DNA of 63,772 bases, filler included, from Folioceros fuciformis (taxonomy: Eukaryota), in the NCBI GenBank assembly GCA_049999805.1. It is 7 parts of 7 records of this genome, joined end to end, with 100 filler letters (N's around TTAATTAATTAA, not from the genome) between each part and the next. Parts side by side here need not be neighbours in the genome. Positions count along the whole stretch, not along the records: positions 1 to 5,809 come from JBNGIO010006096.1; 6 more parts are not named here. The stretch is one strand, 5' to 3'. Within the stretch, counting starts at the first letter, position 1; each line of letters begins with the position of its first letter. Positions 1 to 61,067 of this stretch are shown here, in pieces. The notes under the pieces were generated by a model. The model did no database searches. It saw nothing but the letters and a program-made list of their open reading frames with translations, and was not told the origin of the DNA. Made by a program: the position numbers and the translations under genes.

Positions 1-2719
1 TTTCTCCCACCAGAAATCTGTGTACCTCCTTATTCACCTCAATGCTTGCCACTGCTGGCTTCTTGTTAGCTCCTGCTGCCCTTCTCTGTGTTTCAATCCT
101 GTCTACATCGGTCCACCTACCTGCATCTGCATACGCATTCGCCATGAGAACATAGGCAGGTGCCTTCTGGGGGTCTAGCCTAACAATGCTTTCAAAACAC
201 CACACAGCCCTCTCTAGGTCTCCGTGACTTTTGCAGGCATTCAACAAAGATGTCAAACACACTACATCACTTTGGCCCTCACATGATAATAGCATCCTCT
301 CTGCCTCATCTAATTGGCCAGCACGCCCAAGAAGGTCAATCATGCAGTTCTGATGCTCAACAGTAGGTATGACACCATGCTCTTCAGCCATGGAATCAAA
401 GAGCTTGCGACCCTCCTGGACTAGACCGCCATGACTGCATGCTACTAGAAGGCAAGTAAAAGTAGCATCGTCAGGCTGAACACCGACAGCTAACATCTCC
501 TCAAAACAAGCTAGCGCCTTGCGACCTTCATCACAAGCACCATACCCAGCAATCAGGGCTGTCCATGTAACCACATTCTTTGTGTTCATGGTGTCAAAAA
601 CATGGCGTGCATCTTCCACCTCGCCACATTTTGCATACATGTCCACCAGGCAGTTTCCCACCACTATATTATCCAGCAGTTCTCTTTTGACAATCTGTGA
701 GTGAAGCTCCCTGCCCTTCTGCAAGGCACCAGTGCTTGCACACGCCTTCAGAAGGCAGGCAAAAGTAACCCGGTCAGCCACCACGAGGCCCGCCTCCTGC
801 ATTTGGCCATACACAACAAGTGCCTCTTGGCCGAGTCCTTGCTGTGCATACCCAGCAATCAGGGCATTCCATGTCACCACATCTTTAGTGGCCATGCTGT
901 CAAAAACCTGGCGTGCATCTTCGACCTCACCACATTTTGCATACATGTCCACCAGGCAGTTTCCCACCACTAAATCATCAAACAGTTCTCTTTTGACAAT
1001 CTGTGAGTGAAGCTCCCTGCCCTTCTGCAAGGCACCAGTGCTTCCACACGCCTTCAGAAGGCAAGCAAAAGTAACACAATCAGCCAAAACAAGGCCTGTC
1101 TCCTGCATCTGTCTATACACAACCAGCGCCTCTTGGCCGAGTCCTTGCTGTGCATACCCAGCGATTAGCGCATTCCATGTCACCACATCTTTACTGGCCA
1201 TGCCGTCAAAAACCTGGCGTGCATCTTCCAGCTCACCACATTTTCCATACATGTCCACCAAGGAGTTTCCCACTACTATATTATCCAGCAGTTCTCTCTT
1301 CACAATCTGTGAGTGAAGCTCCCTGCCCTTCTGCAAGGCACCAGTGCTTGCACACGCCTTCAGAAGGCAGGCAAAAGTAACCCGGTCAGCCACCACGAGC
1401 CCCGCCTCCTCCATTTGCCCATACACAACATGTGCCTCTTGGCCAAGTCCTTGCTGTGCATACCCAGCGATCAAGGCATTCCATGTCACCACATCCTTCG
1501 TGTTCATGCTATCAAAAACCTGGCGTGCATCTTTCATTCGGCCGCATTTTGCATACATGTCCACCAAGCAGTTGTTAACAAACAAGTCAGTACGGAAGCC
1601 ACTGCGCAACACGTCGCGGTGCACTGTTCTGCCAGATTCTAAGTCGGCAGCAAATGCACAAGCTTGAAGGGCGGCTACAAAGACGTAACCATTCGCCTTC
1701 ACTTCTGACCTACGCATTTCATGGTACAGTTGTATGGCCTCCTTCGCCTTCCCGTGCTTAGCATGTGCAGAGATTATGGAAACCCACATGAAGACATTCG
1801 GTTTCCCTACCCTGTTGAACACATCCATCGCCTCCTTTAGCCTACCTCCACATGCATACATGCGCAAGATATGGTTCCCCAAATATGCATTCGACTCGTA
1901 CCCAAGTTTGACTGTGAGATCATGAACTCGTCGCCCCACCACCAAATCCTTCTTAGCTGTACAGAGCTTTAACACTGTGTAAAACAGAGAATGAGAAACG
2001 CCAGAGTCTGACTGCACCAGAGATTCCAGGGCTCCAACGGCCTCAGAAAGCTTCCCCTGATCACATAACATGCTCACGGTTGCACCAGTTACGACGCCCG
2101 TTTCCAATTCTGCACGCCTGCCAGATCCACGCTTATACACAGAGCTGCACTCCAAAGAAGAGACTTCATGGCCCATTGGATGTGGAAGTGCTGGGTTTCT
2201 TACACTGCTGCTCCTGGAGCCCATTTCACCATCTGTACGCCTTCCAGGTTCAGGATAATCTGGAGAGCTCAAGTTGGAGGCAGGGGACCGGAGACGCATC
2301 TGCATATCCAACGAGACGAGCTGCTCATCAACCCAAGCTGGCTTAAACCTGTTGTCCAACCACAGCACCTCGCCGGACCCCTTACGCCGGAAGTCAGGGG
2401 AACGGGAGCTCTTCTTATCTCGTCTGTTATCCCACCACATGGTAGGGTCCAGAAAAAGTTGTTGCCACAACTGCTCCTGCTGCTCCTGCTGCTCCTGGCA
2501 ACTACCAGCATCGTCGGAAAACCCGTCCCTGCCCACACACGTTCTCGTTCTCGGAGGTGGAAGTGCTGGGCTCCTCACACTGCTGCACCTGGAGCCTTTG
2601 TTTGCAAAGAGTTCACTCCCGAAGCTGAGGTGAGCGGGGGTTCCTGGTAGAGTCCTTGTACACACACCAATTCCAATTTGTTGGGTCCACAACAGGTCCG
2701 GTTGCCATACTGTGGCCAT
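1..2719 (-). CDS. PLS-class PPR RNA-editing factor (PDF motif-PLS array-E1-E2-DYW:KP), copy 1; 3' end runs off the window start
   Basis: Manual minus-strand translation is open from ATG at 2719 (MATVWQPDLLW...) in frame with MRRSEVK at 1717. It reads S/R/P-rich leader, PDF motif, then L-S-P-L-S-(P-L-S)x3-P2-L2-S2-E1-E2 and the start of KPAVASIEV. Combined with copy 2 this gives an intronless ORF of about 1019 aa. Confidence 0.92.
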   Translation of the reverse strand, partial: MATVWQPDLLWTQQIGIGVCTRTLPGTPAHLSFGSELFANKGSRCSSVRSPALPPPRTRTCVGRDGFSDDAGSCQEQQEQQEQLWQQLFLDPTMWWDNRRDKKSSRSPDFRRKGSGEVLWLDNRFKPAWVDEQLVSLDMQMRLRSPASNLSSPDYPEPGRRTDGEMGSRSSSVRNPALPHPMGHEVSSLECSSVYKRGSGRRAELETGVVTGATVSMLCDQGKLSEAVGALESLVQSDSGVSHSLFYTVLKLCTAKKDLVVGRRVHDLTVKLGYESNAYLGNHILRMYACGGRLKEAMDVFNRVGKPNVFMWVSIISAHAKHGKAKEAIQLYHEMRRSEVKANGYVFVAALQACAFAADLESGRTVHRDVLRSGFRTDLFVNNCLVDMYAKCGRMKDARQVFDSMNTKDVVTWNALIAGYAQQGLGQEAHVVYGQMEEAGLVVADRVTFACLLKACASTGALQKGRELHSQIVKRELLDNIVVGNSLVDMYGKCGELEDARQVFDGMASKDVVTWNALIAGYAQQGLGQEALVVYRQMQETGLVLADCVTFACLLKACGSTGALQKGRELHSQIVKRELFDDLVVGNCLVDMYAKCGEVEDARQVFDSMATKDVVTWNALIAGYAQQGLGQEALVVYGQMQEAGLVVADRVTFACLLKACASTGALQKGRELHSQIVKRELLDNIVVGNCLVDMYAKCGEVEDARHVFDTMNTKNVVTWTALIAGYGACDEGRKALACFEEMLAVGVQPDDATFTCLLVACSHGGLVQEGRKLFDSMAEEHGVIPTVEHQNCMIDLLGRAGQLDEAERMLLSCEGQSDVVCLTSLLNACKSHGDLERAVWCFESIVRLDPQKAPAYVLMANAYADAGRWTDVDRIETQRRAAGANKKPAVASIEVNKEVHRFLVGE
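2318..2470 (-). other. OSB-type PDF motif within the N-terminal extension of the PPR protein
   Basis: Translates to LWQQLFLDPTMWWDNRRDKKSSRSPDFRRKGSGEVLWLDNRFKPAWVDEQL. This matches the W-x4-P-x2-WWDNR-x2-K-x4-PDF-x2-K-x2-GE-x-LW...P-x-WV pattern of the PDF repeat in plant organellar ssDNA-binding (OSB) proteins. Confidence 0.88.
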
Positions 2720-2839
2720 CGTTCACGGACCGCTGTCGGAAGATGACTCTAACGGAAGTCTCGTCTAGGCAGATCCCCGGCCGGGTACACTGCACATCCG
2801 TATATATGACCACAGCAGCCTGAAGGGGTGAACCGTGAC

Positions 2840-2934
2840 CCGTCCTGCCTAAAGGGGTCAGCCGTCCTGCCTAAAGGGGTGAGCCGTCCTGCCTAAAGGG
2901 GTGAGCCATCCTGCCTAAAGGGGTGAGCCGTCCT
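2840..2934. repeat. 22-bp tandem repeat (CCGTCCTGCCTAAAGGGGTGAG, about 4.3 copies) in the putative PPR promoter
   Basis: Units start at 2840, 2862, 2884 and 2906. A TATA-like TATATA at about 2801-2806 lies between the array and the ATG. Confidence 0.9.
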
Positions 2935-3686
2935 AAAACACCTGTGCGCGAGCTGTCGGACTGGTGCTTCAGACCACTCGCCCATGTGACAGATATTTGG
3001 TAGTAACTTTATGTTTCAGTTTAGATATACAAAACAGTTCATTGCTTGTCACCCGCCAATAGAAAAACAAGATTTCATTTCAGGCTTGTCAACGTTAAGT
3101 GCATGCCAACCTACATACCCCAAGATATTTTAAACGAGCCATGGTATCACGGTCTCTGTTTCTCATCACGCAGTTCGGTCAGTTGGTCTCTTGAAGGCCG
3201 AAACGGCAACGCGGGCCTGGATGTGACAAGACGAGGAATTGCCGTTAAGTAAAAGTCTAGATATGTGCCTCGCACTGCCTGGATTCTAATTGGGGTTGCT
3301 AGTTTCACCTGCTTCCTGTGAATTGCCAAGCTCTTGTGCCTTGATACTCCTCGGCATACTGGCTACCGATGTGCTTTCACCTGCACTGTACAACATCATA
3401 TACATACGGCAGTATTGGTAAGGAGAAGGAGTTGACGAGACCTGCAAAGCACGTGTACAACGTGCTCATCATGAAGAGTGTGCAGGAGTGCAGGGAAAAC
3501 ATGCTAGGCTTGCTACAAAGTTGTGAAGTACCTGGTCCCACAGAGCGAAATGCCCTCAAGTGCACGATCATACAATTCTTCTTGTTTGTCTTCTTGTTAG
3601 GGGAACATTGGTACTTGCCAGCAACAAGAATCCGAACACCACTCGGGATCCGCCTGGCACTGGCTACATTCCCTTCTTCATTTTTC

Positions 3687-5809
3687 TTATGGTCGACCCT
3701 TACAACTGCAACAACCATTTGCGAATCGATGCACACGGTACCCATCCCTCACAACAATGTCTCTCTGCTCAAGCCTCGACATGATCGCCGTCGAGCTGTG
3801 GCAATCACTGCACATGCGTAGATTCTTCGTTACCATCAGAGGTGTCCCGTTCGGAGTATTCAACAGACCAAACGCCAGGGCTAGCTTCTCAGCATGCCCA
3901 CAGAGCACACCTTCCTTTTCCTTCTCACTCAGTGGCTTCAACACCAACTTTGTGTGAGGTACGTGGCCTCCTTCCTGCTTCACACGCGCATTCGTGCTCT
4001 CTACCTTAAGCGCAATATCCTTTCTCCTTTCTCCCACCAGAAATCTGTGTACCTCCTTATTCACCTCAATGCTTGCCACTGCTGGCTTCTTGTTAGCTCC
4101 TGCTGCCCTTCTCTGTGTTTCAATCCTGTCTACATCGGTCCACCTACCTGCATCTGCATACGCATTCGCCATGAGAACATAGGCAGGTGCCTTCTGGGGG
4201 TCTAGCCTAACAATGCTTTCAAAACACCACACAGCCCTCTCTAGGTCTCCGTGACTTTTGCAGGCATTCAACAAAGATGTCAAACACACTACATCACTTT
4301 GGCCCTCACATGATAATAGCATCCTCTCTGCCTCATCTAATTGGCCAGCACGCCCAAGAAGGTCAATCATGCAGTTCTGATGCTCAACAGTAGGTATGAC
4401 ACCATGCTCTTCAGCCATGGAATCAAAGAGCTTGCGACCCTCCTGGACTAGACCGCCATGACTGCATGCTACTAGAAGGCAAGTAAAAGTAGCATCGTCA
4501 GGCTGAACACCGACAGCTAACATCTCCTCAAAACAAGCTAGCGCCTTGCGACCTTCATCACAAGCACCATACCCAGCAATCAGGGCTGTCCATGTAACCA
4601 CATTCTTTGTGTTCATGGTGTCAAAAACATGGCGTGCATCTTCCACCTCGCCACATTTTGCATACATGTCCACCAGGCAGTTTCCCACCACTATATTATC
4701 CAGCAGTTCTCTTTTGACAATCTGTGAGTGAAGCTCCCTGCCCTTCTGCAAGGCACCAGTGCTTGCACACGCCTTCAGAAGGCAGGCAAAAGTAACCCGG
4801 TCAGCCACCACGAGGCCCGCCTCCTGCATTTGGCCATACACAACAAGTGCCTCTTGGCCGAGTCCTTGCTGTGCATACCCAGCAATCAGGGCATTCCATG
4901 TCACCACATCTTTAGTGGCCATGCTGTCAAAAACCTGGCGTGCATCTTCGACCTCACCACATTTTGCATACATGTCCACCAGGCAGTTTCCCACCACTAA
5001 ATCATCAAACAGTTCTCTTTTGACAATCTGTGAGTGAAGCTCCCTGCCCTTCTGCAAGGCACCAGTGCTTCCACACGCCTTCAGAAGGCAAGCAAAAGTA
5101 ACACAATCAGCCAAAACAAGGCCTGTCTCCTGCATCTGTCTATACACAACCAGCGCCTCTTGGCCGAGTCCTTGCTGTGCATACCCAGCGATTAGCGCAT
5201 TCCATGTCACCACATCTTTACTGGCCATGCCGTCAAAAACCTGGCGTGCATCTTCCAGCTCACCACATTTTCCATACATGTCCACCAAGGAGTTTCCCAC
5301 TACTATATTATCCAGCAGTTCTCTCTTCACAATCTGTGAGTGAAGCTCCCTGCCCTTCTGCAAGGCACCAGTGCTTGCACACGCCTTCAGAAGGCAGGCA
5401 AAAGTAACCCGGTCAGCCACCACGAGCCCCGCCTCCTCCATTTGCCCATACACAACATGTGCCTCTTGGCCAAGTCCTTGCTGTGCATACCCAGCGATCA
5501 AGGCATTCCATGTCACCACATCCTTCGTGTTCATGCTATCAAAAACCTGGCGTGCATCTTTCATTCGGCCGCATTTTGCATACATGTCCACCAAGCAGTT
5601 GTTAACAAACAAGTCAGTACGGAAGCCACTGCGCAACACGTCGCGGTGCACTGTTCTGCCAGATTCTAAGTCGGCAGCAAATGCACAAGCTTGAAGGGCG
5701 GCTACAAAGACGTAACCATTCGCCTTCACTTCTGACCTACGCATTTCATGGTACAGTTGTATGGCCTCCTTCGCCTTCCCGTGCTTAGCATGTGCAGAGA
5801 TTATGGAAA
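3687..5809 (-). CDS. PLS-class PPR-E1-E2-DYW:KP (GRP-type) protein, copy 2; 5' end truncated by scaffold end
   Basis: 685-aa ORF, extending upstream to the gap, with P/L/S triplets and E1/E2. The deaminase-like domain at 3687-4088 reads KPAVASIEV...HAEKLALAFGLL...KNLRMCSDCH...CSCKGRP. Confidence 0.96.
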
Positions 5810-5909
5810 NNNNNNNNNNNNNNNNNNNNNNNNNNNNNNNNNNNNNNNNNNNNTTAATTAATTAANNNNNNNNNNNNNNNNNNNNNNNNNNNNNNNNNNN
5901 NNNNNNNNN
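5810..5909. other. Artificial scaffold linker
   Basis: N-run + TTAATTAATTAA (stops in all six frames) + N-run. Confidence 0.97.
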
Positions 5910-17900: not shown

Positions 17901-20900
17901 AGAAATCCTCTCAATTCAATCAAGTGAGTAAGCAACGTTAACAGGAACAATCTTTTGTGGCTAGCGATGGAGCTACTTCATCGACGAAGGATGAGAGTCT
18001 TTATCTTGACTCTGGTGCATCTGAACACTTCAATTACAACCTTCGAGGGTTCACTAGCTACACTAGACTCCCGAAGGACCATACAGTGGCACTCGTTGAC
18101 AATACGTCACATGATATCGAGGGGAAAGGAGTCTTACACGTTCAGTTGCAGGGCGGTAACCCCGCACGTATTGAGAATGTGCATCATGTACCCAATCTCA
18201 TGAGGAATCTTCTTTCGGTTGCGAGGATTGCAGATGCAAGTCATGAAATCATCTTCACCTTTGCAGGCTATCGCATTCAACTTGTACAGCATGAGCTGTC
18301 ACACGTGGTTGCTCGCGGTGTTCATGTGGGAAATCTATACACACTTTGTGCTTCAATGAGAAAGCAAGCTTGTACGTTCCTAGCCAGTTCACACAACCAG
18401 ATTGGGTCTGTCCATTTATGGCATCAACGTTTGGGCCACATCGGAGTGGACAAATTCAAGTTGATGATGACTCATGACATGGTGATAGGATTGGATTTGA
18501 CGGAAATTACTGCAACACAGTTGTGTCTAAGATGTCAGATGGGGAAGCTAAATCGCATAAAGTTTCCTAAAGCTGCGACACATCGTGCGCAGAAGGCAAT
18601 GGAATTAGTCCACACTAATGTGAGCGGGCCCATGCGGAACCCTACCCAGGGTGGGAATCGCTACACGCTCATCTTTATCGATGATTTTACACAGAAGACT
18701 TGGACTTACCTTTTGAAGACTTTTAAGGAGTGGAAGACTCTGGTCGAGACCGAACATGGTGAACGCCTTAAGATGCTCGGAGTGACAATGGAGGAGAATA
18801 TCTCTTCTTAGTTCCAGAGTTTTTGTAAGGAGAACGACATCAAACGGCAACTCATGATTCCGCACACCTCGCAACAAAATGGAGTCGCAGAGCGGAACAT
18901 ACTGAGGGAGCCTTGTGGAAGCAGCCAAGTGCATGTTGTTTCACAGCGGCTTGCAGGTCAACTTTTGGGGAGAGGCTGTCATGACAACAACCTATGTGTT
19001 GAACAGAGTTCCGACAAAGGCCGTATCCAGTATGACACTAGAGGAAGCTTAGTTTGGTATAAAACCTAATATCCGACATTTGAGGGTTTTCGGTTCCGTA
19101 GTCTATGCTCGTATCCCGAAGGAGAGCCAGACCAAATAGGATGCTAATGGAACGAATTCTCTCCTACTTGGCTATTTTGATGTAGTGAAAGGCTATAGGT
19201 TATACGATCTTACTACGTTGAAGGTCTTTTTTAGCAGGGATGTTGTTTTTCGGGAGGCTGTAGAGATAATGCCTGGAGTGGGCCCTTCAGATGTTCAATC
19301 TGCCAAAGACAGCGGTGTGCCTTCTCCAACTAGCTGCCACCTTGACCCGCCTGATCCGATGCCTGACGACTCTTCTCACCCTTGTGACATGAGGGGGGGA
19401 AGGGGGAGACACTCCTAATGTCCCTATGGTTGAAGACGTTGTTGGAGCCTTACCCCCAGCCGCAGATGTAGATTGCGACATTGAGGGGGGCAGGAGTGAA
19501 ATTTCCGATGTTTCTGAAGAAGTAGCAGACTATCCTATTATAGCACCGCAACCAGAATTATGTAGATCCACCAGGTTGTGTAAGCCTTCTCAGAGGCTTA
19601 TCGACTCTATCACTGGATCTGAGGAGGTGTGTTTTGCAGATGTAGGAGAACCCCACAGCCTGAAGGAGGCATTCGAAGGCCCAAAGGCAAAAGAATGGAG
19701 AGCAGCCGTGGACAATGAATACAACTCCCTCATCGCCAACAAAACTTGGATTATTACTCCCCTACCTCCTGGAAGAAAATGCATAGGATCAAGGTGGACT
19801 TTCAAGATTAAGCGGAAGGTTGACGGCAGCATAGAGTGCTACAAGGCGAGGCTAGTAGGGAAAGGGTATAAGCAAATTCCAGGCGTGGATTATTCCGATA
19901 CCTTCTCACCTATTGCAAAGATAGCCTCTATTCGAGCACTCCTTGTTATTGCCGCTACCTTGGATATGGAGGTACATCATATAGATGTTCAAACTGCCTT
20001 TTTGAATGAGGATCTGAACGAAGAGATCTACATGGAGCAACCCGAGGGCTATATGGTACCTAGATGTGAGGGCGAGGTATGTAAGTTACAAAAGGCAATT
20101 TATGGTCTTAAGTAATTCGTCCTTACCTGGTATTCTAAAATTAATGATCATTTCCAGTCTAGAGGTTTCACGAAGACTAATGTAGATTGGAATATTTATG
20201 TGAAGCAAGTGGGAGCTTCTGTTATTATCATTGCTGTGTATGTGGATGATTTAGTCATTATTAGCGATGATCAGGAGCTTTTGGCCTTTGCAAAGCGAGG
20301 GCTCAGCGAAAGCTTTGTTGTACGAGACCTTGAGGAGCTACATCATTTTCTAGGTATAAAGGTTGATAGAAATAGGACCAATAGGACAATCTCTCTAAGT
20401 CAGCAAACGTATGTGCAGACTATACCAAAACAATTTGGGATGCTAGATGGCAAATTGACGTAGACGCCAATGATCCGCAATGAGAAGTTATCACAAGTGG
20501 TGGATCCCACTATGAAGGAACAGGTAGATAAGCATCTCTACCAATGTATTGTTGGTTGCCTTATTCATTTGGCGACAAGCATTACGCCCGACACTGCAGA
20601 GGCAGTGGGAGTTGCGAGCCAATTCTTGGTCAAACCCCAGCCACAACATTATCAAGCCGTCAAGAGAATACTCAGATGCCTGCAGGGCACAAAACATTGG
20701 ATGTTGACTTATCGAAAGAAGAAGGACGAAGAAGCTAGTATTGTAGAATTTTACGACTCAGATTGGGCAGGAGATGTCGATACTCGCAGGTCTACCACAA
20801 GGTATGCCTTTTGCTATTTGGGGGAGCCATTTCATGGAGTAGCAGGCATTAGCGTACAGTGGCGTTATCCTCTACAAAGGCTAAGTATATGACAATCTCT

Positions 20901-21591: not shown

Positions 21592-21691
21592 NNNNNNNNN
21601 NNNNNNNNNNNNNNNNNNNNNNNNNNNNNNNNNNNTTAATTAATTAANNNNNNNNNNNNNNNNNNNNNNNNNNNNNNNNNNNNNNNNNNNN
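21592..21691. other. Artificial scaffold linker
   Basis: N-run + TTAATTAATTAA + N-run. Confidence 0.97.
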
Positions 21692-24600
21692 CTTTTTCAA
21701 CCAAAACAAACTACTACCCCAAACTTTGGAGGTTCACATGCCCCCCTTCTCAGCTGTTTGCGTCCTCGCAAACAACTAACCCTCTCAGGGTTGATAATAC
21801 TTCTTGACTTGCCAACCATTGACCCTAGTTGGCAACAAATCACCATCCAATACCCTCAACTGGACAGACCCATTCTCAAACACTTCCTCCACCTTGTAAG
21901 GACCCATCCATCTCAGCCTCAGCTTACCTGGAAAATCCATGTACCTACTGTCATACAGTAGCACCAGATCGCCCTGTACGATGGTCTCCTTCTTCCTCAA
22001 CCTACCATCATGGCGGGTTTTCCTTTGCTCTTGTATCCTATGAGTCTCCTCCAAGGCTTCTTCTCGGTCCTCCTCGTAGGTGATGAAAGCTTCCAACCTA
22101 GCTTCTTGGCTCTCCCTCACCGGTAGCCTAGCCTCCTCCATGACACGGTGAGTGGGAATCTCAAACTCAATGGGAAGAACAGGCGACATACCATAGGTCA
22201 AGTAGTATGGAGTCCTCTTCGTGGTGATCTTCTCTGCCGTCCTGTAAGCCCAAAGTGCTGAATGCAACTTGGTATCCCAATCGTACATGTGAGTCACAGT
22301 CACCTTGGTCAAGATGGTCCCCAAAAGACCATTGGTCTTCTCCGTTAACCCATTCGCCTTCGGATTGTAAGGAGTGGTCTTCCTATGTCGAATGTTGAAG
22401 TAGGTGGTCAAGGCGGTGATGACTTCATTGAGAAAATGTGTACCTCTGTCGCTGACCAACTCCAATGGACACCCATAGCGTGTGATGATGTTCTCAAACA
22501 GAAATTTGGCCACTGTTGGTGCATCGTCCCGTCGGGTAGCCTCCGCCTCCACCATCTTGGTGCAGTAGTCCGTCGCCACTAAGATGTATTGCTTCCTTGT
22601 CCAGCGAGTAGGTGGACGAATCGGCCCTACAAAGTCGATCCCCCACTTCTCGAACGGAGCCAACGGCAAAATGTAGGTCAACGGCCACCTGGTTGTCAAT
22701 GTGGGTCTCCCTACCCTTTGACAAGCATCACACCTTCTTACAAACTCCCACACATCCCTCTGCATGGTAGCCCACCAAAACCCAGTATCCAAGATCTTCT
22801 TGATGGTAATGGGGACTGAATAGTGGCCTCCTGCCTCTTCCGCATGCAAAGCTTCAGTCACCACAACACCTTCATTCACTTCCAAACAACGCCTCACCTT
22901 ACCATCTGGGCCTAGTTTGTACAAGACCCCTTGCTTCAAACAATATGGGCCTGTCTTGTGCAAGAACACTGCCCTACCCTCGCGGCTCAATCCAGCTGGC
23001 ATGATTCCAAACTCCAAAAATCTCCTCACCTCAACTGGTAGCAATTGCCTAGCACAAGGCCTTCCCAACCTGTCGCTACGGCGGTTCCTCTTCCTCCGAG
23101 CCTGGCTGACCTTCTGGCTACTCTCAACCCTTGTAGAGGTTCCTCCTCCCTCACCGGTAACCTGTTCATCGAACTCTCCCTCTTCTACTGTATGTACAGC
23201 AGCAATCAACTCCTCATCAGGAAACCTGTCATCCGTTTCTCTAACCTTCCCTTTGGTTTTGAGTCTAGAAACAAAGTCAGCATTAACATGGCTCTTCCCT
23301 GCTCTTGTTTCCACCTCAAAATCAAACTCCTGCAGAAAGAGAATCCACCTAGCGATCCTCCCCGATAGGTCAGGCTTGTTCACAAGATACTTCAAAGCAA
23401 AGTGGTCCACATGAAATACTACCTTGCAAGCTAGAAGGTAGTGACGGAGCTTCTTACAAGCGTAGATGATGCCCAAAGCCTCTCTCTCCGTTGTGGAGTA
23501 ATTCCTCTCCGCATCTGTGAGTTGCCTTCCGGCATAGAAGATAGGGTGATCCCTCTTCTTGTCGTCTTGTTGGCTGAGGATGGCCCCTATAGCATAGGCT
23601 GACACATCCACATACACATGAAAGGTCTTCTCCCAATTTGGTGGGCTCAATGTGGGTGCTGCCACCAAACTCCTCTTCAAGTCCTGAAACGCTTCCTCCC
23701 TCTCCGGGGTCCACTCATACAGCACATCCTTCTTCGTTAGCTGGGTCAAAGCTGCCGCCTTCTTAGCGAAGTCCTTGATGAATCTCCTGTAGTAACCCAC
23801 CAACCCAATGAAAGCCCTGACCTGTCTCACGCTCTGAGGTGCATCCATCTCCGAGATGATCTTCACCTTTTCCATGTCGACTTGCAACCCCCTGGCTGAA
23901 ACTCTATGGGCTAGCAAGATACCCTCCGTCATGCAAAAGAAACACTTCCCCGGATGCAACTTGAGGTTAGTCTCCCTACACCTCTGCAAGCACTTCCTTA
24001 GCTGTTCCAAGTGTAGGTACCTCCTTCCAAAGACACAAAAGTCATCCAAGAACACCTCCATGAACTTCCGAAGGAACTCCTTGAAAATGGTATTCACCAC
24101 CTGCTGAAAAGTTGCCGGAGCATTGCAGAGCCCAAAAGGCACCTTGGTGTAGGCGTACGTCCCCCAATCAGTTGTGAAAGTCGTCTTGTCACGATCCTCC
24201 TCCCGCAGTGTGATCTGATTGTAACCTGAATACCCATCTAGGAAACTGTACATCTCATGTCCAGCAACTGTGTCCAACACACTGTCCATGAAAGGGAGTG
24301 GATGATGGTCTTTCTTGGTTGCCTCATTGAGCTTCCTGAAGTCCTGGCAAACCCTCACCTTGCCAGCTTGCTTCTTAGGCACCACCACAATTGGAGCTAC
24401 CCACTCACTAGTTAGGACAGGATAGATGACTCCAGCCTCCAAGTACTGATCCAACTGCTCCTTCACAACCATGGAGTACTTTGGGTTCAATCGGTATTGC
24501 TTCACCCGAACCGGTGTGCTTCCCTCCTTGAGATCTATCCTATGAACACCCAGCTCCTCCGGAACACCTGTCATGTCCGTCACCTTGAAGGCAAACACAT

Positions 24601-25723
24601 CCAAATATTCAGTCAACAGTGCCTTCAAACCTACCTTCTCCTTGGGTGTGAGGTACTTGGACACCTTGACTTTCTTCCCTGGGGTCAACTCCATGTCCTC
24701 GACAGCATCGGGATCCACGTAAACTCCTTCGGGACTACTCCCTACACTTGTTCCTGATCCTTCTTCTGGGAAATCATAGTCATAGGCTTTCCCCTTCCAA
24801 AAGGCAGCTCCTTCCCTTTGCTCTTCATCCTCCTGTGGATCTTCATTCTCCACCACTTCAGTATGGAAACAAGTCACCTCTTGACCCAAATCCACCATCC
24901 TGACAGTATGCCCTACTCCCTTGTAGGCTCCTGTACTGCTGGAAGTGCTACCTCCAGCACTACCGGATGTGTACCCGGGGGATGGTCCTGCTGTTTCTCC
25001 CCCATAGGGAGCTTTGCTCCACGAGACAAACGAAACTTCAGCAGGTCCTGTAGGTTTAGACCTAAAGGTCACACCTTTCCTGCCAAAATCAAACACACAA
25101 GCTGTCCCGTACAACCACGGTCTCCCAAGGAGCCCCTTGTACCCTAGGTCAGACACTGGCCTCATGACAATGTAGGTTAGCTTGAACATGATCCCTCCTA
25201 TCACCGTGGGCACATCCTTCAACACTCCTAGAGGCTTCCTCTTGGTCTGATCTGCCATCCGAAGGTACACGCGGATAGGGTCAAACTCTGTGAACCCCAA
25301 ACGATGGGCTGTGTCCTCCGTCATGAGGTTGACACCAGACCCCGTATCCAGCGGTACATCCGGTACCAGACAACCTGCAATCTCCACCTCTATTTCAGGA
25401 GCTCCACAATCAGCCAACTCCACTGAACTCATCCAAGTCGGGACTGTCTTCCCTTCGAGTGGCTCCGGTATCCCTCGGATGGCTTCCGTGATGATCTTCC
25501 TGGCCTTGGGACTAACAGACAAGAGCTATCTCAAGCTCACCACAAACTCCTGGTCAAGCAAGGCGTCAGCAAATCCAGCAACCTTCATGGCCAAAGCCTC
25601 CCTTGTTGTTGTTGTCTTAGGAGGATTGATCCCTCCATCCTCCTCGCTTCGATCAACCTTCTCTCCTTCCTGTTCCTTCTCCAAGGGACTTGCACTCTCC
25701 ACCACCCCTGTCACAAGAGGGTC
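21692..25723 (-). mobile_element. Ty3/Gypsy LTR retrotransposon (non-chromovirus): pol, PPT and start of 3' LTR
   Basis: Domain order PR-RT-RH-INT. PPT GAGAAGGGGGG at 21751-21741 is followed by CA and then TGTGAACC (LTR start at 21738). No chromodomain after the integrase GPY motif. Confidence 0.95.
21785..25525 (-). CDS. Gypsy Pol polyprotein (aspartic protease, RT, RNase H, integrase)
   Basis: Uninterrupted 1245-aa ORF with LDTGSG, CQDFRKLN, PFGLCNAPATFQ, FLDD, NYSTTERE, H-H-CDAC, WGIDF, SDRG and GPYKV. Confidence 0.95.
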   Translation of the reverse strand, partial: LLSVSPKARKIITEAIRGIPEPLEGKTVPTWMSSVELADCGAPEIEVEIAGCLVPDVPLDTGSGVNLMTEDTAHRLGFTEFDPIRVYLRMADQTKRKPLGVLKDVPTVIGGIMFKLTYIVMRPVSDLGYKGLLGRPWLYGTACVFDFGRKGVTFRSKPTGPAEVSFVSWSKAPYGGETAGPSPGYTSGSAGGSTSSSTGAYKGVGHTVRMVDLGQEVTCFHTEVVENEDPQEDEEQREGAAFWKGKAYDYDFPEEGSGTSVGSSPEGVYVDPDAVEDMELTPGKKVKVSKYLTPKEKVGLKALLTEYLDVFAFKVTDMTGVPEELGVHRIDLKEGSTPVRVKQYRLNPKYSMVVKEQLDQYLEAGVIYPVLTSEWVAPIVVVPKKQAGKVRVCQDFRKLNEATKKDHHPLPFMDSVLDTVAGHEMYSFLDGYSGYNQITLREEDRDKTTFTTDWGTYAYTKVPFGLCNAPATFQQVVNTIFKEFLRKFMEVFLDDFCVFGRRYLHLEQLRKCLQRCRETNLKLHPGKCFFCMTEGILLAHRVSARGLQVDMEKVKIISEMDAPQSVRQVRAFIGLVGYYRRFIKDFAKKAAALTQLTKKDVLYEWTPEREEAFQDLKRSLVAAPTLSPPNWEKTFHVYVDVSAYAIGAILSQQDDKKRDHPIFYAGRQLTDAERNYSTTEREALGIIYACKKLRHYLLACKVVFHVDHFALKYLVNKPDLSGRIARWILFLQEFDFEVETRAGKSHVNADFVSRLKTKGKVRETDDRFPDEELIAAVHTVEEGEFDEQVTGEGGGTSTRVESSQKVSQARRKRNRRSDRLGRPCARQLLPVEVRRFLEFGIMPAGLSREGRAVFLHKTGPYCLKQGVLYKLGPDGKVRRCLEVNEGVVVTEALHAEEAGGHYSVPITIKKILDTGFWWATMQRDVWEFVRRCDACQRVGRPTLTTRWPLTYILPLAPFEKWGIDFVGPIRPPTRWTRKQYILVATDYCTKMVEAEATRRDDAPTVAKFLFENIITRYGCPLELVSDRGTHFLNEVITALTTYFNIRHRKTTPYNPKANGLTEKTNGLLGTILTKVTVTHMYDWDTKLHSALWAYRTAEKITTKRTPYYLTYGMSPVLPIEFEIPTHRVMEEARLPVRESQEARLEAFITYEEDREEALEETHRIQEQRKTRHDGRLRKKETIVQGDLVLLYDSRYMDFPGKLRLRWMGPYKVEEVFENGSVQLRVLDGDLLPTRVNGWQVKKYYQP

Positions 25724-25823
25724 NNNNNNNNNNNNNNNNNNNNNNNNNNNNNNNNNNNNNNNNNNNNTTAATTAATTAANNNNNNNNNNNNNNNNNNNNN
25801 NNNNNNNNNNNNNNNNNNNNNNN
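25724..25823. other. Artificial scaffold linker
   Basis: N-run + TTAATTAATTAA + N-run. Confidence 0.97.
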
Positions 25824-36366: not shown

Positions 36367-36444
36367 ATGCTGGGAGGGCAGCGGACGCTATTGCCTCCGA
36401 ATATATAGGGCATGCCGTGATCCGAGTTGTGGGCCTCGTGAGCC

Positions 36445-37524
36445 ATGCTAGCACAGAAGGAAGCGGAGGGGGACATCCCGGGAGACAGGCTCATCCAAGA
36501 TGGAGACATGGTGGTGGTTTACGAGAGGCACGACCGGATGAAAGTGGTGACGGTGAAGAAGGACGCAAAGCTGCAGAACCGATTCGGTGTGTTCGACCAC
36601 AAGGATTGGATCGGCAAGGCGTTCGGATGCAAGGTGGTGGGTTCCAACGGGAAGTCGTTTGTGCACTTGCTGGCGCCAAATCCGGAGCTCTGGACCCTAT
36701 CTCTGCCGCACAGGACGCAGATCCTGTATGTGGCAGACATCAGCTTGGTGATAGCCCATCTGGAGCTTCGACCTGGAAGCATCGTGCTGGAATCTGGGAC
36801 AGGGAGCGGGTCCTTGACAACATCCTTGGCCCGGGCTGTGGCTCCCACGGGCCATGTGCACACTTTCGACTTCCATGAACAACGATGTGAAGCTGCTAGG
36901 GAAGACTTCAGCCGCAACGGGCTGGGCAAATTGGTGACGGCCTACAAGCGGGACATTCAGGGGGCGGGCTTTCCTGAGGAGTTCAGCAACCAGTGCGATG
37001 CTGTTTTCCTGGACCTACCGCAGCCATGGCTAGCAGTACCATCGGTGTCCATATGCCTGAGATGGGGTGGGGTCATCTGCTCGTTCTCTCCTTGCATAGA
37101 GCAAGTCCAGCGTACAGCCTCGGCTCTCAGGGACCACAAATTGACAGGTACGTGTTCGATTCAGTTCATGGGCATTTGCGCTTTCGTGCAACCGACTACT
37201 GGGTGGGTGGTTGATGGGTGGCTTCCATTCCGACATGCCCTTGCAGACATCAGGACATTCGAAATTCTGCTTCGAACATACGAGGTTCAAAGGGTGGCTC
37301 CGGATGCAGTCCCACCCGTGGACAGAGCCGTCGTCCACAGGAACTCGTCCACGTCGCCGCCTCCAAAGAGGATTTGCTTGGCTGGTGCTGAGGACAATCC
37401 TGGTTCAGCTGGAAATGACACACGGGGCACAAACATAAATCCGTTGCGATCTATTATGGCCAGACCATGCTCTGAAACCAAGGGGCACACGGGGTATCTC
37501 ACGACAAGCACTGCCTCCACTTGA
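36445..37524 (+). CDS. TRM61: tRNA (adenine58-N1)-methyltransferase catalytic subunit; probable intron 37148-37246
   Basis: PELWTLSLPHRTQILY, VLESGTGSGS, DAVFLDLPQPW, SFSPCIEQV and HTGYLT. Confidence 0.95.
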   Translation: MLAQKEAEGDIPGDRLIQDGDMVVVYERHDRMKVVTVKKDAKLQNRFGVFDHKDWIGKAFGCKVVGSNGKSFVHLLAPNPELWTLSLPHRTQILYVADISLVIAHLELRPGSIVLESGTGSGSLTTSLARAVAPTGHVHTFDFHEQRCEAAREDFSRNGLGKLVTAYKRDIQGAGFPEEFSNQCDAVFLDLPQPWLAVPSVSICLRWGGVICSFSPCIEQVQRTASALRDHKLTGTCSIQFMGICAFVQPTTGWVVDGWLPFRHALADIRTFEILLRTYEVQRVAPDAVPPVDRAVVHRNSSTSPPPKRICLAGAEDNPGSAGNDTRGTNINPLRSIMARPCSETKGHTGYLTTSTAST

Positions 37525-47842: not shown

Positions 47843-47942
47843 NNNNNNNNNNNNNNNNNNNNNNNNNNNNNNNNNNNNNNNNNNNNTTAATTAATTAANN
47901 NNNNNNNNNNNNNNNNNNNNNNNNNNNNNNNNNNNNNNNNNN
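47843..47942. other. Artificial scaffold linker
   Basis: N-run + TTAATTAATTAA + N-run. Confidence 0.97.
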
Positions 47943-50900
47943 CTTCACACGCTGCCATTGCTGCGCCTCTGTATTCAGCTTCTGTACTAGACAAAGCCAC
48001 TGTAGGCTGCTTCTTGCTACTCCATGTAATTGCTGCACTCCCAAGTGAAAAAATGAATCCACTTGTAGATCTACGATCAGTAACACTGCCTGCCCAATAT
48101 GCATCTGTGTATCCACACAGGTTTATTTCTAAATCTGCAACATAAAAGAGAGCATGATTCATAGTTGCCTTCACATAGCGCAACGTTCGCCTTACTGCAT
48201 CCAAATGTGGCTTTCTTGGTGCCTGCATAAACTGACTTTGCAATCCCACTGTATAGTTCAAATCTGGTCGGGATAGAGTGAGATATATCAAGCTACCCAC
48301 AATCTTCGTGTACATTGTTGGATCTTCAAGTGCTTCACCATCATGAGCACTGAGCTTTAGATTTTGATCCAAAGGAATCGAGATTGGCTTGCACTCAACC
48401 ATACCATACTTAGTTAGTACATCCGACGCATACTTCCGCTGTGACAGCCAAATGCCTGTGTTGGTTCGTATAATTTCAATGCCCAAAAAGAACCTCAGTT
48501 CACCTAGGTCTGCCATCTTGAACTCTTGTTGTAGAAGTTCCTTGATCTGCTCCACTTGATCCAATTGATTACCTCCAATGATTAGATCATCCACATAAAT
48601 GGTCACAAAGACCAGTCGTTTTGTACTTTTGCACACATACAACGAATGATCCGCATCTGCCATGTTGAATCCGATGTGAATCAGATGCTGAGCAAGACGC
48701 TCATGCCAAGCCCTCGGGGCTTGCTTCAGTCCGTACAACGTTTTTTTTCAGCTTGCACACATGATTTGGATGATCCAAATCCTCATAACCTGGTGGCTGG
48801 TCCATGTATACTTCTTCCAGCAATTCTCCATGTAAAAACGCATTCTTCACATCCATATGATGTAGGACCCAACCTTTCGATGCCGCTAGTGCGATCACGG
48901 TTCAAATTGTTGCCATTTTGGCAACTGGACTGAACGTCTCCTCAAAATCTATTCCATATGTCTGGGCATATCCCTTGGCCACAAGCCTTGCCTTGTACCT
49001 GTTGATACTACCATCTGCGTTGTGTTTGACCTTGTACACCCATTTGCAACCTATTGGTTTCTTGCCTTCAGGTAGTTGTACTAGGTCCCATGTTGCATTC
49101 TGATTTAACGCATTCATTTCTTCATCCATAGCATGTTCCCACTTTGTGTCTCCAATAGCTTCTTCAAAGCTTCTTGGTTCCACATCCTGTACAACCTTTG
49201 CCATATAGGCATGGTGCCTAGCTACATAGCTATCATAGGTCAACCGCTGTATTGGAACCTTCTGCCTTCCAGATCTCCGTGGGATTGAACCACTTCCAGG
49301 GGCTGATTGAACCTCTTTTGCACCAGGTGTTTCGATTTTCGGTACACCGAATTCCTCATCCAGGCTCTACTCAGAGTCGCTTGAATCATCCGCACCTGCA
49401 CTTAGGTCTGGTATCTTTGAATCCTGGACTTTTTCCTTCCCTTTGCGAGACACAGCTGTGGAGCTCGTAGGACTCACACTACCTCGCAACTTGCCACTCC
49501 ATGGATTCTGAACATTTGTCGAGTTTGATGACGCTTGCGGTCCACTCAACACTTGTGATTGTTGACCTGCATTGCTTGTTACCTCAGTTTCAAGCACATC
49601 AGCTACACTACTTCCTTGTACTTCAAAGTACCAGCTACCCATTTCATCAAAGACTACGTCTCTGCTTACTCTCATAGTCCGTGTACTGGGATTGTAGCAC
49701 CTGTATCCTTTCTGTGTAACAGAATACCCAATGAAGACACACTTTTCTGCTTTTGGATCAAGCTTAGTCCGCAACTCATCCGGAATATGGACATAAGCAA
49801 TGCAACCAAATACCTTTAAGTGTGACAAGTCAGGTTTCTTCCCTGTGAACTTCTCCTCCGGTGTTACACTGTGCACCGCTGCTGTGGGAGTTCTGTTCAT
49901 GATGTACACTGCTGTGCTTATAGCTTCAGCCCAATAGTAGTGAGGCATCTTCTTCTCTGTCATCAATGCTCTCGCCACTTCTGCTATGTGCCTGTTCTTG
50001 CGCTCTGCAACTCCATTTTGTTGTGGCGTATAACGACATGTGTACTACCGTTGAATGCCCTGTTCTGATAAGAATTTGCTGAACTCTCTGGAGAAGTACT
50101 CTCCCCCTCCATCAGATCTTAGGCATTTGATGTGCCTACCTGTCTGCTTCTCAACCATCGCCTTGAAAGTATGAAAATGAGTGATCACTTCACTTTTTTC
50201 TTTCATGAAATAGACCCACACCTTCCTTGTGTGGTCGTCAATGAAGGTCACATAGTACTTGCAGCCTCCGATTGATGCAGTCTGTGTAGGACCCCATACA
50301 TCTGAATGCACAACATCCAACACATATCTGCTGACATGTTTGTCATGGGGGAACGCATTCCTAGGCTGTTTCCCAAGTTGACATGCTTCACATATACCTT
50401 GCAGTCCATTTTCTGTAAGCTTGGGTATGCCTGTGACAACCTTCTGATGCTGCATGGACTTCAACTTCTGCACATTTACATGTCCAATGCGTTTGTGCCA
50501 CATCTCTAGGTCTGTCACTACCCTTGTACCCTTCGCAAACATGGCTGACTTCGGCTTAGGAACCTCCACGTTCAAGGTGAACATCCGTCCAACCTTCTGT
50601 CCTTGAGCAATCAGGCGACCGCCTTTCTTGCACTCTTCAACAAAGAGTCCTGCAGGTGTAAATCTAACCTGCAGTCCTCGCTCAACCATCTGCCCAACTG
50701 ACACCAAGTTCTTTGTGATGTTGGGTACGTGAAGAACATATACCAGGCACTTCACTTTGCCATCCTGCATCTTCAGAGGTACAGTTCCTGTATGCACAAT
50801 TGCATGTGTTGTGTCATCTCCAGTTTCTACATATCCAGGTTTGTCAAGCACTTGCATTTCTTTGAACCACTCCCCATGGCATGTCATGTGGTTCGAAGCT

Positions 50901-52469: not shown

Positions 52470-52569
52470 NNNNNNNNNNNNNNNNNNNNNNNNNNNNNNN
52501 NNNNNNNNNNNNNTTAATTAATTAANNNNNNNNNNNNNNNNNNNNNNNNNNNNNNNNNNNNNNNNNNNN
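52470..52569. other. Artificial scaffold linker
   Basis: N-run + TTAATTAATTAA + N-run. Confidence 0.97.
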
Positions 52570-60967: not shown

Positions 60968-61067
60968 NNNNNNNNNNNNNNNNNNNNNNNNNNNNNNNNN
61001 NNNNNNNNNNNTTAATTAATTAANNNNNNNNNNNNNNNNNNNNNNNNNNNNNNNNNNNNNNNNNNNN
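60968..61067. other. Artificial scaffold linker
   Basis: N-run + TTAATTAATTAA + N-run. Confidence 0.97.

Follow-up and report, generated by a model that had tools for sequence, protein, structure and literature searches.

The locus and its reading frame

The window, the whole stretch of Folioceros fuciformis DNA that was analysed (63,772 nt), contains at its start two identical copies of a minus-strand gene for a PPR protein. Copy 1 is complete at its 5' end and runs past the edge of the window, and copy 2 comprises the 3' part. The features of the locus are as follows.

2..2719, minus: copy 1 coding sequence, 906 codons, 5' end complete and 3' end beyond the window (from ORF, ATG, and Pfam PPR and E motif)
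2504..2719, minus: presequence (suggested by composition), residues 1-72, predicted disordered (pLDDT <50)
2552..2596, minus: imperfect direct repeat of 45 nt (15 aa), first copy, GSRCSSVRSPALPPP, at residues 42-56
2288..2503, minus: PDF domain, residues 73-144 (from HMM, invariant columns, and model confidence); core residues 84-134 at 2318-2470
2099..2287, minus: linker from PDF domain to PPR array, residues 145-207, predicted disordered (pLDDT <50)
2177..2221, minus: the 15-aa repeat, second copy, GSRSSSVRNPALPHP, at residues 167-181, lying 125 codons downstream of the first
65..2098, minus: PPR solenoid of ~20 helix pairs, about one cap, 17 PLS motifs, E1, and E2 (Pfam; AlphaFold)
541..1573, minus: P-L-S triplet repeats inside the array, 3.4 tandem units of 306 nt with 88% matches
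38-226, minus: Pfam E motif, residues 832-894 (PF20431, 2.1e-13)
2720..3686, no strand: spacer of 967 nt from copy 2 stop to copy 1 start, with a 22-nt tandem repeat at 2835-2934
3687..5809, minus: copy 2, an identical gene represented by its 3' part; stop codon at 3687-3689, 5' side ending at the contig end
3696..3968, minus: DYW deaminase domain of KP (GRP) type (PF14432, 1.4e-33, residues 593-683 of the 685-aa ORF)
4568-5600: copy 2 counterpart of the 306-nt P-L-S units
5810..5909, no strand: gap of 44 N, a 12-base linker, and 44 N

Positions 1-1782 match positions 4028-5809 with 100% identity over 1782 nt, and the repeat period is 4027 nt (3060 + 967). The locus consists either of at least two tandem 4027-nt units or of one unit over-represented in the assembly. 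An earlier note on this DNA took the 685-aa ORF (3687..5744) for a truncated copy. The truncation is not biological: this copy is identical to copy 1 over the 1782 nt and ends at the contig end and gap at 5810. The same note placed the start of copy 1 334 codons further upstream, and the 685-aa ORF indeed begins with the residue that corresponds to M335 of copy 1 (ATG 1717).

The start codon of copy 1 lies at 2719-2717, with an in-frame TGA two codons upstream (2725-2723), and the minus-strand frame is still open where the window begins. A total of 225 codons are open ahead of the PPR array. Residues 1-75 contain six arginines and one lysine against four aspartates and one glutamate, in addition to eight serines and seven threonines. 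Residues 1-72 are likely an organelle targeting peptide. Further downstream, M141, M166, M183, and M217 are alternative start candidates, and M166 begins a presequence-like stretch that duplicates residues 42-56. A possible in-frame intron beginning with GTAAGA (2203) within the linker was considered and rejected, as the nearest AG acceptors would remove 59, 86, or 94 nt, none of which is a multiple of three (by eye).

Among the sequencing runs searched for the copy 1 locus, none recorded as RNA contains it. Short contigs at 90% likeness pile up over the gene, including 2329-2716, at 3168-29531 per run in four runs from three organisms. They are short unitigs of a multi-copy family, none spans the gene, and their joints stem from paralogues or repeats. 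The pile-up therefore shows only that related sequence is multi-copy, and carries no information on transcript, start, or splicing.

Copy 1 is matched by the Pfam families PF01535 (1.5e-90, 13 stretches) and PF13041 (3.4e-89). It contains tandem P, L, and S motifs followed by C-terminal E1/E2, as in PLS-class proteins. The full-length AlphaFold model has 40 helices in residues 212-881. In DYW:KP proteins the PG box is replaced by a box written KPAxA. The C terminus of copy 2 carries a KKPAVASIEV box just upstream of the deaminase domain, HAE (HAEK), CSDCH, and the end CKGRP. It thus combines a DYW-type deaminase with HxE...CxxC, an altered PG box, HAE for HSE, and a terminal GRP. PMC9478123 distinguishes the KP type from DYW:PG by an altered PG box, HAE for HSE, and a terminal GRP or DRH in hornworts. 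It ascribes the GRP end to a DYW:KP variant of hornworts and treats HAE as the form of the active site conserved in KP proteins. Since copy 1 continues beyond the window, its DYW:KP end is taken from the identical copy 2. With this reservation the domain order proposed earlier stands: the PDF segment and the PLS array lie in one uninterrupted frame, and the KP (GRP) end is read in copy 2. As a PLS protein of the DYW:KP (GRP) type, the product of the locus is a candidate factor for U-to-C RNA editing in organelles.

The PDF domain and its relation to OSB proteins

The PDF domain was identified with an HMM built from 185 PDF motifs, taken from 80 matches that bear an OB fold. Against this profile of motifs from OB-fold OSB-type proteins only, residues 75-141 score 79.7 bits (E 5.5e-27), level with the OSB motifs themselves, whereas 1000 shuffled versions of residues 1-225 reach at most 7.4 bits. 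The comparison with an OSB-derived HMM, suggested beforehand as a check, came out in favour of the motif. A phmmer search with residues 1-225 against 1.84 billion representatives returned 610 matches at E<=1e-3, including 164 at E<=1e-10. In each of the 150 matches listed, the best stretch overlaps the PDF motif, and matches by name include OSB3-like (Chenopodium) and OSB1-like (Populus) proteins. The phmmer matches, the OSB names among them, and the HMM score together identify the OSB-type PDF motif of the earlier note as genuine. The 51-aa peptide it pointed to corresponds, as given there, to residues 84-134, encoded at 2470-2318.

The Pro-Asp-Phe triplet occupies residues 107-109 of copy 1. 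Eleven columns (W, D, R, K, P, D, F, L, P, W, V) are invariant across 13 PPR-linked PDF motifs, and copy 1 keeps all of them. Pfam assigns no domain to residues 1-225, and the OB-fold SSB-like domain PF00436 has no match at E<=1 in the 906-aa copy 1 protein. A word-indexed protein search with residues 60-150 gave 31 candidates, none at E<=0.001; the exhaustive HMMER search revealed that this blank reflects limited sensitivity.

In the AlphaFold model, the PDF domain (residues 73-144) is a confident independent module, flanked by the low-confidence presequence and a linker of ~63 residues. Its pLDDT is 92.9 when modelled alone, and block means range from 73 to 95 in the full-length model. A Foldseek search of the PDF model against the PDB yields seven matches at E<=10 and none at E<=0.001, and there is no OSB or PDF structure for comparison. 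With no similar solved structure, the fold offers no functional hint.

A tree of 500 PDF motifs requires six label changes between PPR-linked and OSB motifs, compared with 99-104 in the five shuffles shown. The OSB motifs of ferns (Adiantum P0240 and Pteridium P0054) lie outside the PPR clades. The tree includes a 99-motif clade without support. The PPR-linked PDF motifs appear to form a lineage separate from OSB motifs, with the clustering partly due to the many Diphasiastrum paralogues.

PDF-PPR proteins in other plants

PDF-PPR fusions are found in Diphasiastrum, Selaginella, Adiantum, Ceratopteris, Pteridium (transcripts), two species of Sphagnum, and Calypogeia. Examples are XP_024517303 (Selaginella), KAJ7570437 (Diphasiastrum), KAI5076972 (Adiantum), KAH7429238 (Ceratopteris), CAM6033764 (Sphagnum), and CAM6093772 (Calypogeia). 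Such entries are labelled in public protein sets just as hypothetical or PPR proteins. The best 150 PDF matches include 12 with PPR arrays. With a PDF-only profile, PPR Pfam domains are present in 35 of the 120 matches listed; 32 of these 35 are from Diphasiastrum, every one under a different locus tag. Many Diphasiastrum PDF-PPR models are automatic predictions. In the Pteridium transcripts P0079 and P0188, PDF and PPR lie within a single ORF.

The proteins share one layout, in which one to three PDF motifs near the N terminus precede a PLS array, and the PDF is N-terminal of the array in 66 of 67 PDF-PPR proteins. Their C-terminal ends are mostly E-type or canonical DYW. Among 44 PDF-PPR proteins examined in two listings, 39 have no DYW domain, five have a complete canonical DYW, and none is of KP type. 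Among the 120 closest PPR homologues, typed as KP or PG by simple patterns that left 21 of the 120 unclassified, the PDF occurs in 14 of 80 proteins lacking DYW, in 7 of 30 whose DYW is canonical or unclear, and in 1 of 10 of KP type. The earlier note had implied a link between the PDF and U-to-C editors and proposed looking for enrichment in DYW:KP proteins. Neither set bears this out: KP ends number 0 of 44 in the first, and in the second the PDF is found in 1 of 10 KP proteins against 7 of 30 in the canonical or unclear group and 14 of 80 without DYW. The note had listed a lack of the motif in other PPR genes among the outcomes that would refute it; PDF-PPR proteins are, however, present in several lineages. 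As judged from these sequences, the PDF-PPR fusion is neither unique to this locus nor restricted to DYW:KP.

A second protein with PDF and DYW:KP(GRP), the sole other in the sets examined, is P0325. It is 950 aa long with a GRP end and shares 53% identity overall with the window protein and ~60% over the PDF segment (counted by hand). Its PDF is placed as in copy 1, behind its own 59-aa presequence, and it lacks most of the linker. Hornworts are counted in the spread of PDF-PPR proteins because of the GRP end. P0341, a GRP-type protein with the highest identity among the matches listed (57%), is without PDF.

These relatives bear on whether the PDF segment is part of the working protein at all. 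It might be a recent 5' addition, with translation starting downstream (for example at M166) and the upstream frame a young, undecayed duplication product. The two copies of the 45-nt repeat bracket the PDF segment, the region around the second copy is absent from P0325, P0341 is a GRP-type relative without PDF, and no RNA run was found to contain the locus, all of which suit such an origin. However, the 225 open codons begin with the first ATG right behind an in-frame stop, all 11 invariant PDF residues are kept and the score is as high as for OSB motifs, P0325 has an equivalently placed PDF with its own presequence, and Pteridium transcripts express PDF-PPR as one ORF. We regard a recent addition as improbable.

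The combination could also be spurious, with an OSB-like gene and a PPR gene wrongly joined in a chimeric assembly or in a fused gene model. The draft scaffold does contain 20 runs of N and identical contig ends, and the automatically predicted Diphasiastrum models could share such a fault. Yet positions 1-5809 contain no N, the PDF and PPR segments share a single uninterrupted frame, and no OB-fold domain lies upstream. The same order recurs in RefSeq Selaginella, two fern genomes, fern transcripts, two Sphagnum species, and one liverwort, which makes an artefact barely credible.

The gene rather belongs, as part of what we consider the probable overall explanation, to an ancient, widely distributed group of PLS proteins that carry an N-terminal PDF in liverworts, mosses, lycophytes, ferns, and hornworts, ending in E motifs only, canonical DYW, or DYW:KP. 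The earlier note knew of no description of this architecture. Among the papers open to full-text search, likewise none joins PDF with PPR or DYW. A word search of the 2024 PPR review PMC11897456 did not find PDF, and neither OSB nor DYW occurs in the main text of the hornwort genome paper PMC7027989. The PDF-PPR combination is common, yet apparently undescribed, in mosses, liverworts, lycophytes, and ferns.

Possible role of the PDF module and comparison with known systems

Our favoured explanation, which we hold to be probable, is an intronless nuclear gene for a PLS-class candidate editor of the DYW:KP (GRP) type with a disordered presequence, one PDF domain, a flexible linker, and a PPR array, in which the PDF adds single-strand binding. 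The PPR array would pick the RNA site, and the DYW:KP domain would carry out the chemistry. The tethered PDF module would contribute sequence-unspecific binding of single-stranded nucleic acid, and we infer for it the role of a helper of this kind or of a nucleoid anchor.

Two targets of the module can be envisaged. Since the 5' side of a bound RNA lies against the N-terminal PPR motifs, the PDF might contact RNA 5' of the PPR footprint. Alternatively, it might bind exposed ssDNA of the nucleoid or of a transcription bubble. Such anchoring could raise the local concentration of the protein and couple editing to transcription. OSBs are ssDNA-binding proteins that serve DNA maintenance in organelles, and the PDF is the module with which they bind ssDNA. 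According to PMC6963530, the PDF is a motif of ~50 residues with a conserved Pro-Asp-Phe, and that of AtOSB1, the one PDF for which such binding is reported, suffices for ssDNA binding. OSB1 and OSB2 favour ssDNA over dsDNA or RNA, as reported in PMC4166229. This preference counts against taking RNA binding by the PDF for granted and against a plain helper role on RNA, and lends mild support to tethering on DNA.

A module on a long flexible tether may instead bind proteins. In PPR proteins, the PDF could serve interaction or oligomerisation, perhaps recruiting to OSB or nucleoid proteins or to editosome parts, like seed-plant helpers. The grouping of PPR-linked motifs apart from OSB motifs would permit a changed function. 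One gene model with a kinesin domain (P0049) has a PDF as well, a hint that the module may be a portable adaptor. However, ssDNA binding is the sole PDF activity reported in PMC6963530 and PMC4166229, and the conserved positions hold aromatic and basic residues (W, F, R, K), as would fit a nucleic-acid binder. A protein-interaction role is rather unlikely on this evidence.

The fusion might also direct the deaminase-like domain to ssDNA, so that organellar DNA rather than RNA would be edited or damaged. This idea draws only on the ssDNA preference of OSBs reported in PMC4166229 and on the fact that the protein also has a nucleotide-modifying domain. DYW is absent from 39 of the 44 PDF-PPR proteins examined and from 14 of the 22 PDF-positive proteins among the 120 closest homologues, a long PLS array is what editing factors ordinarily use to read RNA, and synthetic DYW:KP proteins work on RNA (PMC9478123). 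DNA editing is very improbable.

The favoured single-strand-binding explanation can be extended to the whole set, though we offer the extension as a speculation that is doubtful at present. PDF-PPR proteins would be an old, undescribed class of organellar editing and RNA-processing factors of non-seed land plants. Their PDF would anchor them to ssDNA of the nucleoid or transcription bubble for co-transcriptional recognition and editing, both C-to-U and U-to-C. The cis-fused module would be an alternative to the trans helpers of seed plants and have been lost when those helpers took over.

PLS-class editing factors are usually drawn as a targeting peptide, a repeat array, and C-terminal E/DYW domains. 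In dozens of genes of one lycophyte a known ssDNA-binding module precedes the array, and the same is seen in Sphagnum mosses, a liverwort, and ferns. This suggests an accessory function omitted from current models and PPR annotation pipelines. The combination provides a testable handle on how targets are found where a lineage has hundreds to thousands of sites, and on whether editing is linked with transcription. For designer U-to-C editors, it suggests that DYW:KP template proteins may naturally use an extra nucleic-acid-binding part. For OSB biology, the PDF emerges as a portable domain not confined to OSBs.

The window protein shares with the OSB family the ~50-aa PDF motif with conserved P-D-F and W/R/K positions. 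OSBs consist of an OB-fold SSB-like domain followed by a C-terminal PDF, whereas copy 1 has no OB fold and an N-terminal PDF followed by PPR repeats. With the DYW:KP (GRP) PLS proteins of hornworts, lycophytes, and ferns it has in common the PLS array, E1/E2, HAE, CxDCH, the KPAxA-like box, and the terminal GRP, but copy 1 adds the PDF domain and a long linker between presequence and array. Nearly all other PDF-PPR proteins end in E motifs or canonical DYW, unlike the DYW:KP window protein. To our knowledge, MORFs are missing from non-seed plants. The MORF/RIP helpers of seed-plant editosomes offer a possible analogy, as accessory factors that make PLS proteins bind RNA more strongly; such enhancement is described for MORF9 in PMC11897456. 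The two are unrelated in sequence, and MORFs are separate proteins binding to the PPR array, whereas a flexible tether joins the PDF in cis to the PPR protein.

Reading frame and domain order of the PDF-PPR gene

The gene lies on the minus strand and is represented by copy 1 and by copy 2, its 3' part. Residues are numbered on the copy 1 frame.

From ATG 2719 to the window start (-): copy 1, 906 codons, 3' end open
2288-2503 (-): PDF domain of copy 1, residues 73-144
3687-5744: copy 2 ORF, 685 aa, same repeats as copy 1 plus DYW_deaminase at 1.4e-33 (Pfam)

An in-frame TGA is located two codons upstream of ATG 2719, which is therefore the furthest start possible without splicing. The peptide quoted in the earlier note is exactly residues 84-134, encoded at 2470-2318. 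In the 906-aa copy 1, Pfam matches begin at about residue 230 and consist of PPR repeats and an E motif; residues 1-225 have no match. The PPR array contains 3.4 tandem units of 306 nt with 88% matches, each composed of one P-L-S triplet, at 541-1573 and also at 4568-5600; the array is enlarged by recent internal duplication. The spacer contains, at 2835-2934, a tandem repeat with a 22-nt unit (4.5 copies, 93% matches), which lies ~120-215 nt before the start codon.

Copy 2 carries HAEK, CSDCH, a KKPAVASIEV box and a CKGRP end, and we infer the DYW:KP end of copy 1, the deaminase type of candidate U-to-C editing factors, from it. Positions 1-1782 and 4028-5809, the two ends of the first contig (1-5809), are 100% identical. 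Their offset of 4027 nt equals a whole gene (1019 codons plus stop, 3060 nt) and a 967-nt spacer. Copy 2 runs up to 5809 and is followed by a gap (5810-5909) made of 44 N, 12 bases and a further 44 N. As it is identical to copy 1 up to this gap, the supposed truncated 685-aa copy is a gene cut by the assembly gap, with the ORF starting at its first internal ATG. There are two readings of the identical contig ends: a very young tandem array or duplication, or a repeat unresolved or over-represented in the draft assembly.

The 12 bases at 5854-5865 translate as stop-Leu-Ile in the frame read and resemble a stop-codon linker for joining contigs. The same gap pattern occurs at 21592-21691, 25724-25823, 47843-47942, 52470-52569 and 60968-61067, and the other gaps are plain 100 N or 10 N. 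Further features of the window are the following.

36442-37524 (+): ORF matching the tRNA methyltransferase GCD14/TRM61 subunit (PF08704, 5.6e-86)
21785-25525 (-), 17942-18811 (+), 47887-48747 (-), 50045-51907 (-): retrotransposon frames, one gypsy-like (RT, RNase H, integrase; 1246 aa open), the remaining ones copia-like pieces with gag, pre-integrase, integrase and RVT_2

Identity and predicted fold of the PDF motif

The N-terminal region contains a genuine PDF motif, the ~50-aa motif of OSB organellar ssDNA-binding proteins, as the earlier note had proposed. When 1.84 billion cluster representatives were searched by phmmer with residues 1-225, 610 proteins matched at E<=1e-3; of these, 164 passed E<=1e-10 and 16 passed E<=1e-30. 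In each of the best 150 of the 610 matches the best segment overlaps the PDF motif, and many of the 150 hold 2-13 motif copies. Named matches include "protein OSB3, chloroplastic/mitochondrial-like" (Chenopodium) and "protein OSB1, mitochondrial-like" (Populus), and OSB1-4 names are far more numerous among the listed matches of the PPR-linked PDF profile. The Pfam SSB model matched four of ten scanned proteins, with the database protein P0004 alone reaching the curated cut-off. An iterated search seeded with the OB region of P0004 marked 80 of the 150 as OB-bearing. The HMM built from 185 motifs of these 80 proteins, themselves found with the window motif as query, matches the window protein at residues 75-141 (79.7 bits, E 5.5e-27); among 1000 shuffled versions of residues 1-225, the top score was 7.4 bits.

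The PDF motif was modeled from alignment A1, which comprises 13 PPR-linked PDF motifs, with a mean pLDDT of 92.9. It is sequentially composed of a helix, three short strands and a helix. Foldseek returned no PDB structure resembling this model at E<=0.001. The model of all 906 aa (alignment A2, 25 sequences) has a mean pLDDT of 80.7; residues 73-144 are confident in it, and both residues 1-72 and residues 145-207 have pLDDT <50. Residues 212-881 form 40 helices, or ~20 helix pairs, a predicted number that fits a cap, ~17 PLS motifs, E1 and E2. The PDF is thus predicted to be a self-standing fold on a flexible tether.

Distribution and C-terminal types of PDF-PPR proteins

The architecture, of which the earlier note knew no description, recurs in Diphasiastrum, Selaginella, Adiantum, Ceratopteris, Pteridium, Sphagnum and Calypogeia. 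Twelve of the best 150 PDF matches are similar to the window protein in its PPR-E-DYW part as well, including proteins of the first four genera (Selaginella, RefSeq XP_024517303) and of Sphagnum compactum, and one Pteridium transcript. Profile A1, searched against longer proteins, gave 857 matches among 8000 scored candidates. PPR Pfam domains are present in 35 of the 120 matches listed; 32 are from Diphasiastrum, each under a different locus tag, and the remaining three include one Pteridium transcript and one Adiantum protein. The OSB-derived HMM detects the motif in 22 of the 120 closest homologues of the 906-aa protein (two weak or partial), including proteins of the liverwort Calypogeia fissa and Sphagnum magellanicum.

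All searches together yielded 67 PDF-PPR proteins with one (n=30), two (n=30) or three (n=7) PDF motifs; in 66 of them the last motif is complete before residue 341. The Pteridium transcripts P0079 and P0188 contain three PDF motifs and PPR within one ORF, so the fusion is transcribed as a single reading frame in a fern. The replication-protein table of PMC4166229 gives OSB as N.D. for Selaginella moellendorffii, yet Selaginella possesses a PDF-PPR protein (P0118); the PDF may therefore be retained solely in the PPR context there. Several Diphasiastrum E-type members (e.g. P0199, P0221, P0232, P0198, P0186) have a common C-terminus, ...W(M/V)QLD. The PDF also occurs in a 1526-aa kinesin-motor gene model of Coptis chinensis (P0049) and a 1063-aa model of Striga hermonthica named 'Interactor of constitutive active ROPs 2' (P0033), which may be true fusions or merged gene models.

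A FastTree tree was built from 500 motifs, 111 PPR-linked and 389 OSB-linked, leaving out those of 65 unclassified proteins. The PPR/OSB label changes 6 times on it, compared with 99-104 times in the five label shuffles listed. The window motif groups with fern members in a 13-motif clade that is entirely PPR-linked (support 86), and the PPR clades do not include the fern OSB motifs (Adiantum P0240, Pteridium P0054). The tree hints at few origins of the PPR-linked motifs; it is a hint rather than proof because the alignment is short, the big clade is without support and many rows are Diphasiastrum paralogues.

Complete DYW domains are found in five of 44 examined PDF-PPR proteins, all of them canonical (...DYW) and none KP.

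PDF motif by C-terminal type among the 120 closest PPR homologues (typed by simple patterns; counts per type are rough)
C-terminal type: proteins with PDF
No DYW domain: 14/80
Canonical or unclassified DYW: 7/30
KP-type: 1/10

These counts do not bear out the proposed tie of the PDF to U-to-C editing, and in this respect the finding is less special than the earlier note supposed. It is wider in another respect, as the PDF is a family-wide module in non-seed plants.

The sole KP-type protein with a PDF in this set, P0325 (950 aa, GRP end, HAE), shares 53% identity with the window protein over the PDF, array and E motifs, and ~60% over the PDF segment (counted by hand). P0341, also of GRP type and with the highest identity among the matches listed (57%), has a presequence followed directly by the array, without a PDF. 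Thus, the PDF is present or absent among close relatives. PMC9478123 describes GRP and DRH as the two hornwort variants of DYW:KP, and states that the active site of the KP type has the conserved form HAE. The gene is therefore probably from a hornwort or a plant closely related to hornworts.

The main rival explanation for this locus views the PDF part as a young, unexpressed 5' addition. Three observations favour it: the PDF segment is flanked by a 45-nt imperfect direct repeat at residues 42-56 (2552-2596) and 167-181 (2177-2221), M166 starts a presequence-like stretch, and the region around the second repeat is missing from P0325. The repeat encodes GSRxSSVRxPALPxP twice, 125 codons apart, and may record the way in which the N-terminal region arose.

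Possible role of the PDF module

A full-text literature search found no paper that connects PPR, DYW or PLS with a PDF motif or domain, and an earlier mention may exist. By word search, PPR does not occur in a 2026 survey on the evolution of OSB, nor PDF in a 2024 PPR review. PDF-PPR proteins are already in public databases, named hypothetical or generic PPR.

The sequences show the domain order, the homology and the conservation across land-plant lineages, and the architecture is near certain. PLS arrays recognize RNA on the 5' side of the edited base, and DYW-type domains carry out base conversion. To these the PDF module would add unspecific single-strand binding, to RNA upstream of the PPR footprint or to nucleoid ssDNA, and thereby may keep the factor close to nascent transcripts. 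This mechanism as a whole is tentative, with a chance of roughly a third to a half. In known systems, U-to-C editing is carried out by designer DYW:KP proteins (PMC9478123). Reviews describe the AtOSB1 PDF motif as sufficient for ssDNA binding (PMC6963530) and report that OSB1 and OSB2 prefer ssDNA over dsDNA or RNA (PMC4166229).
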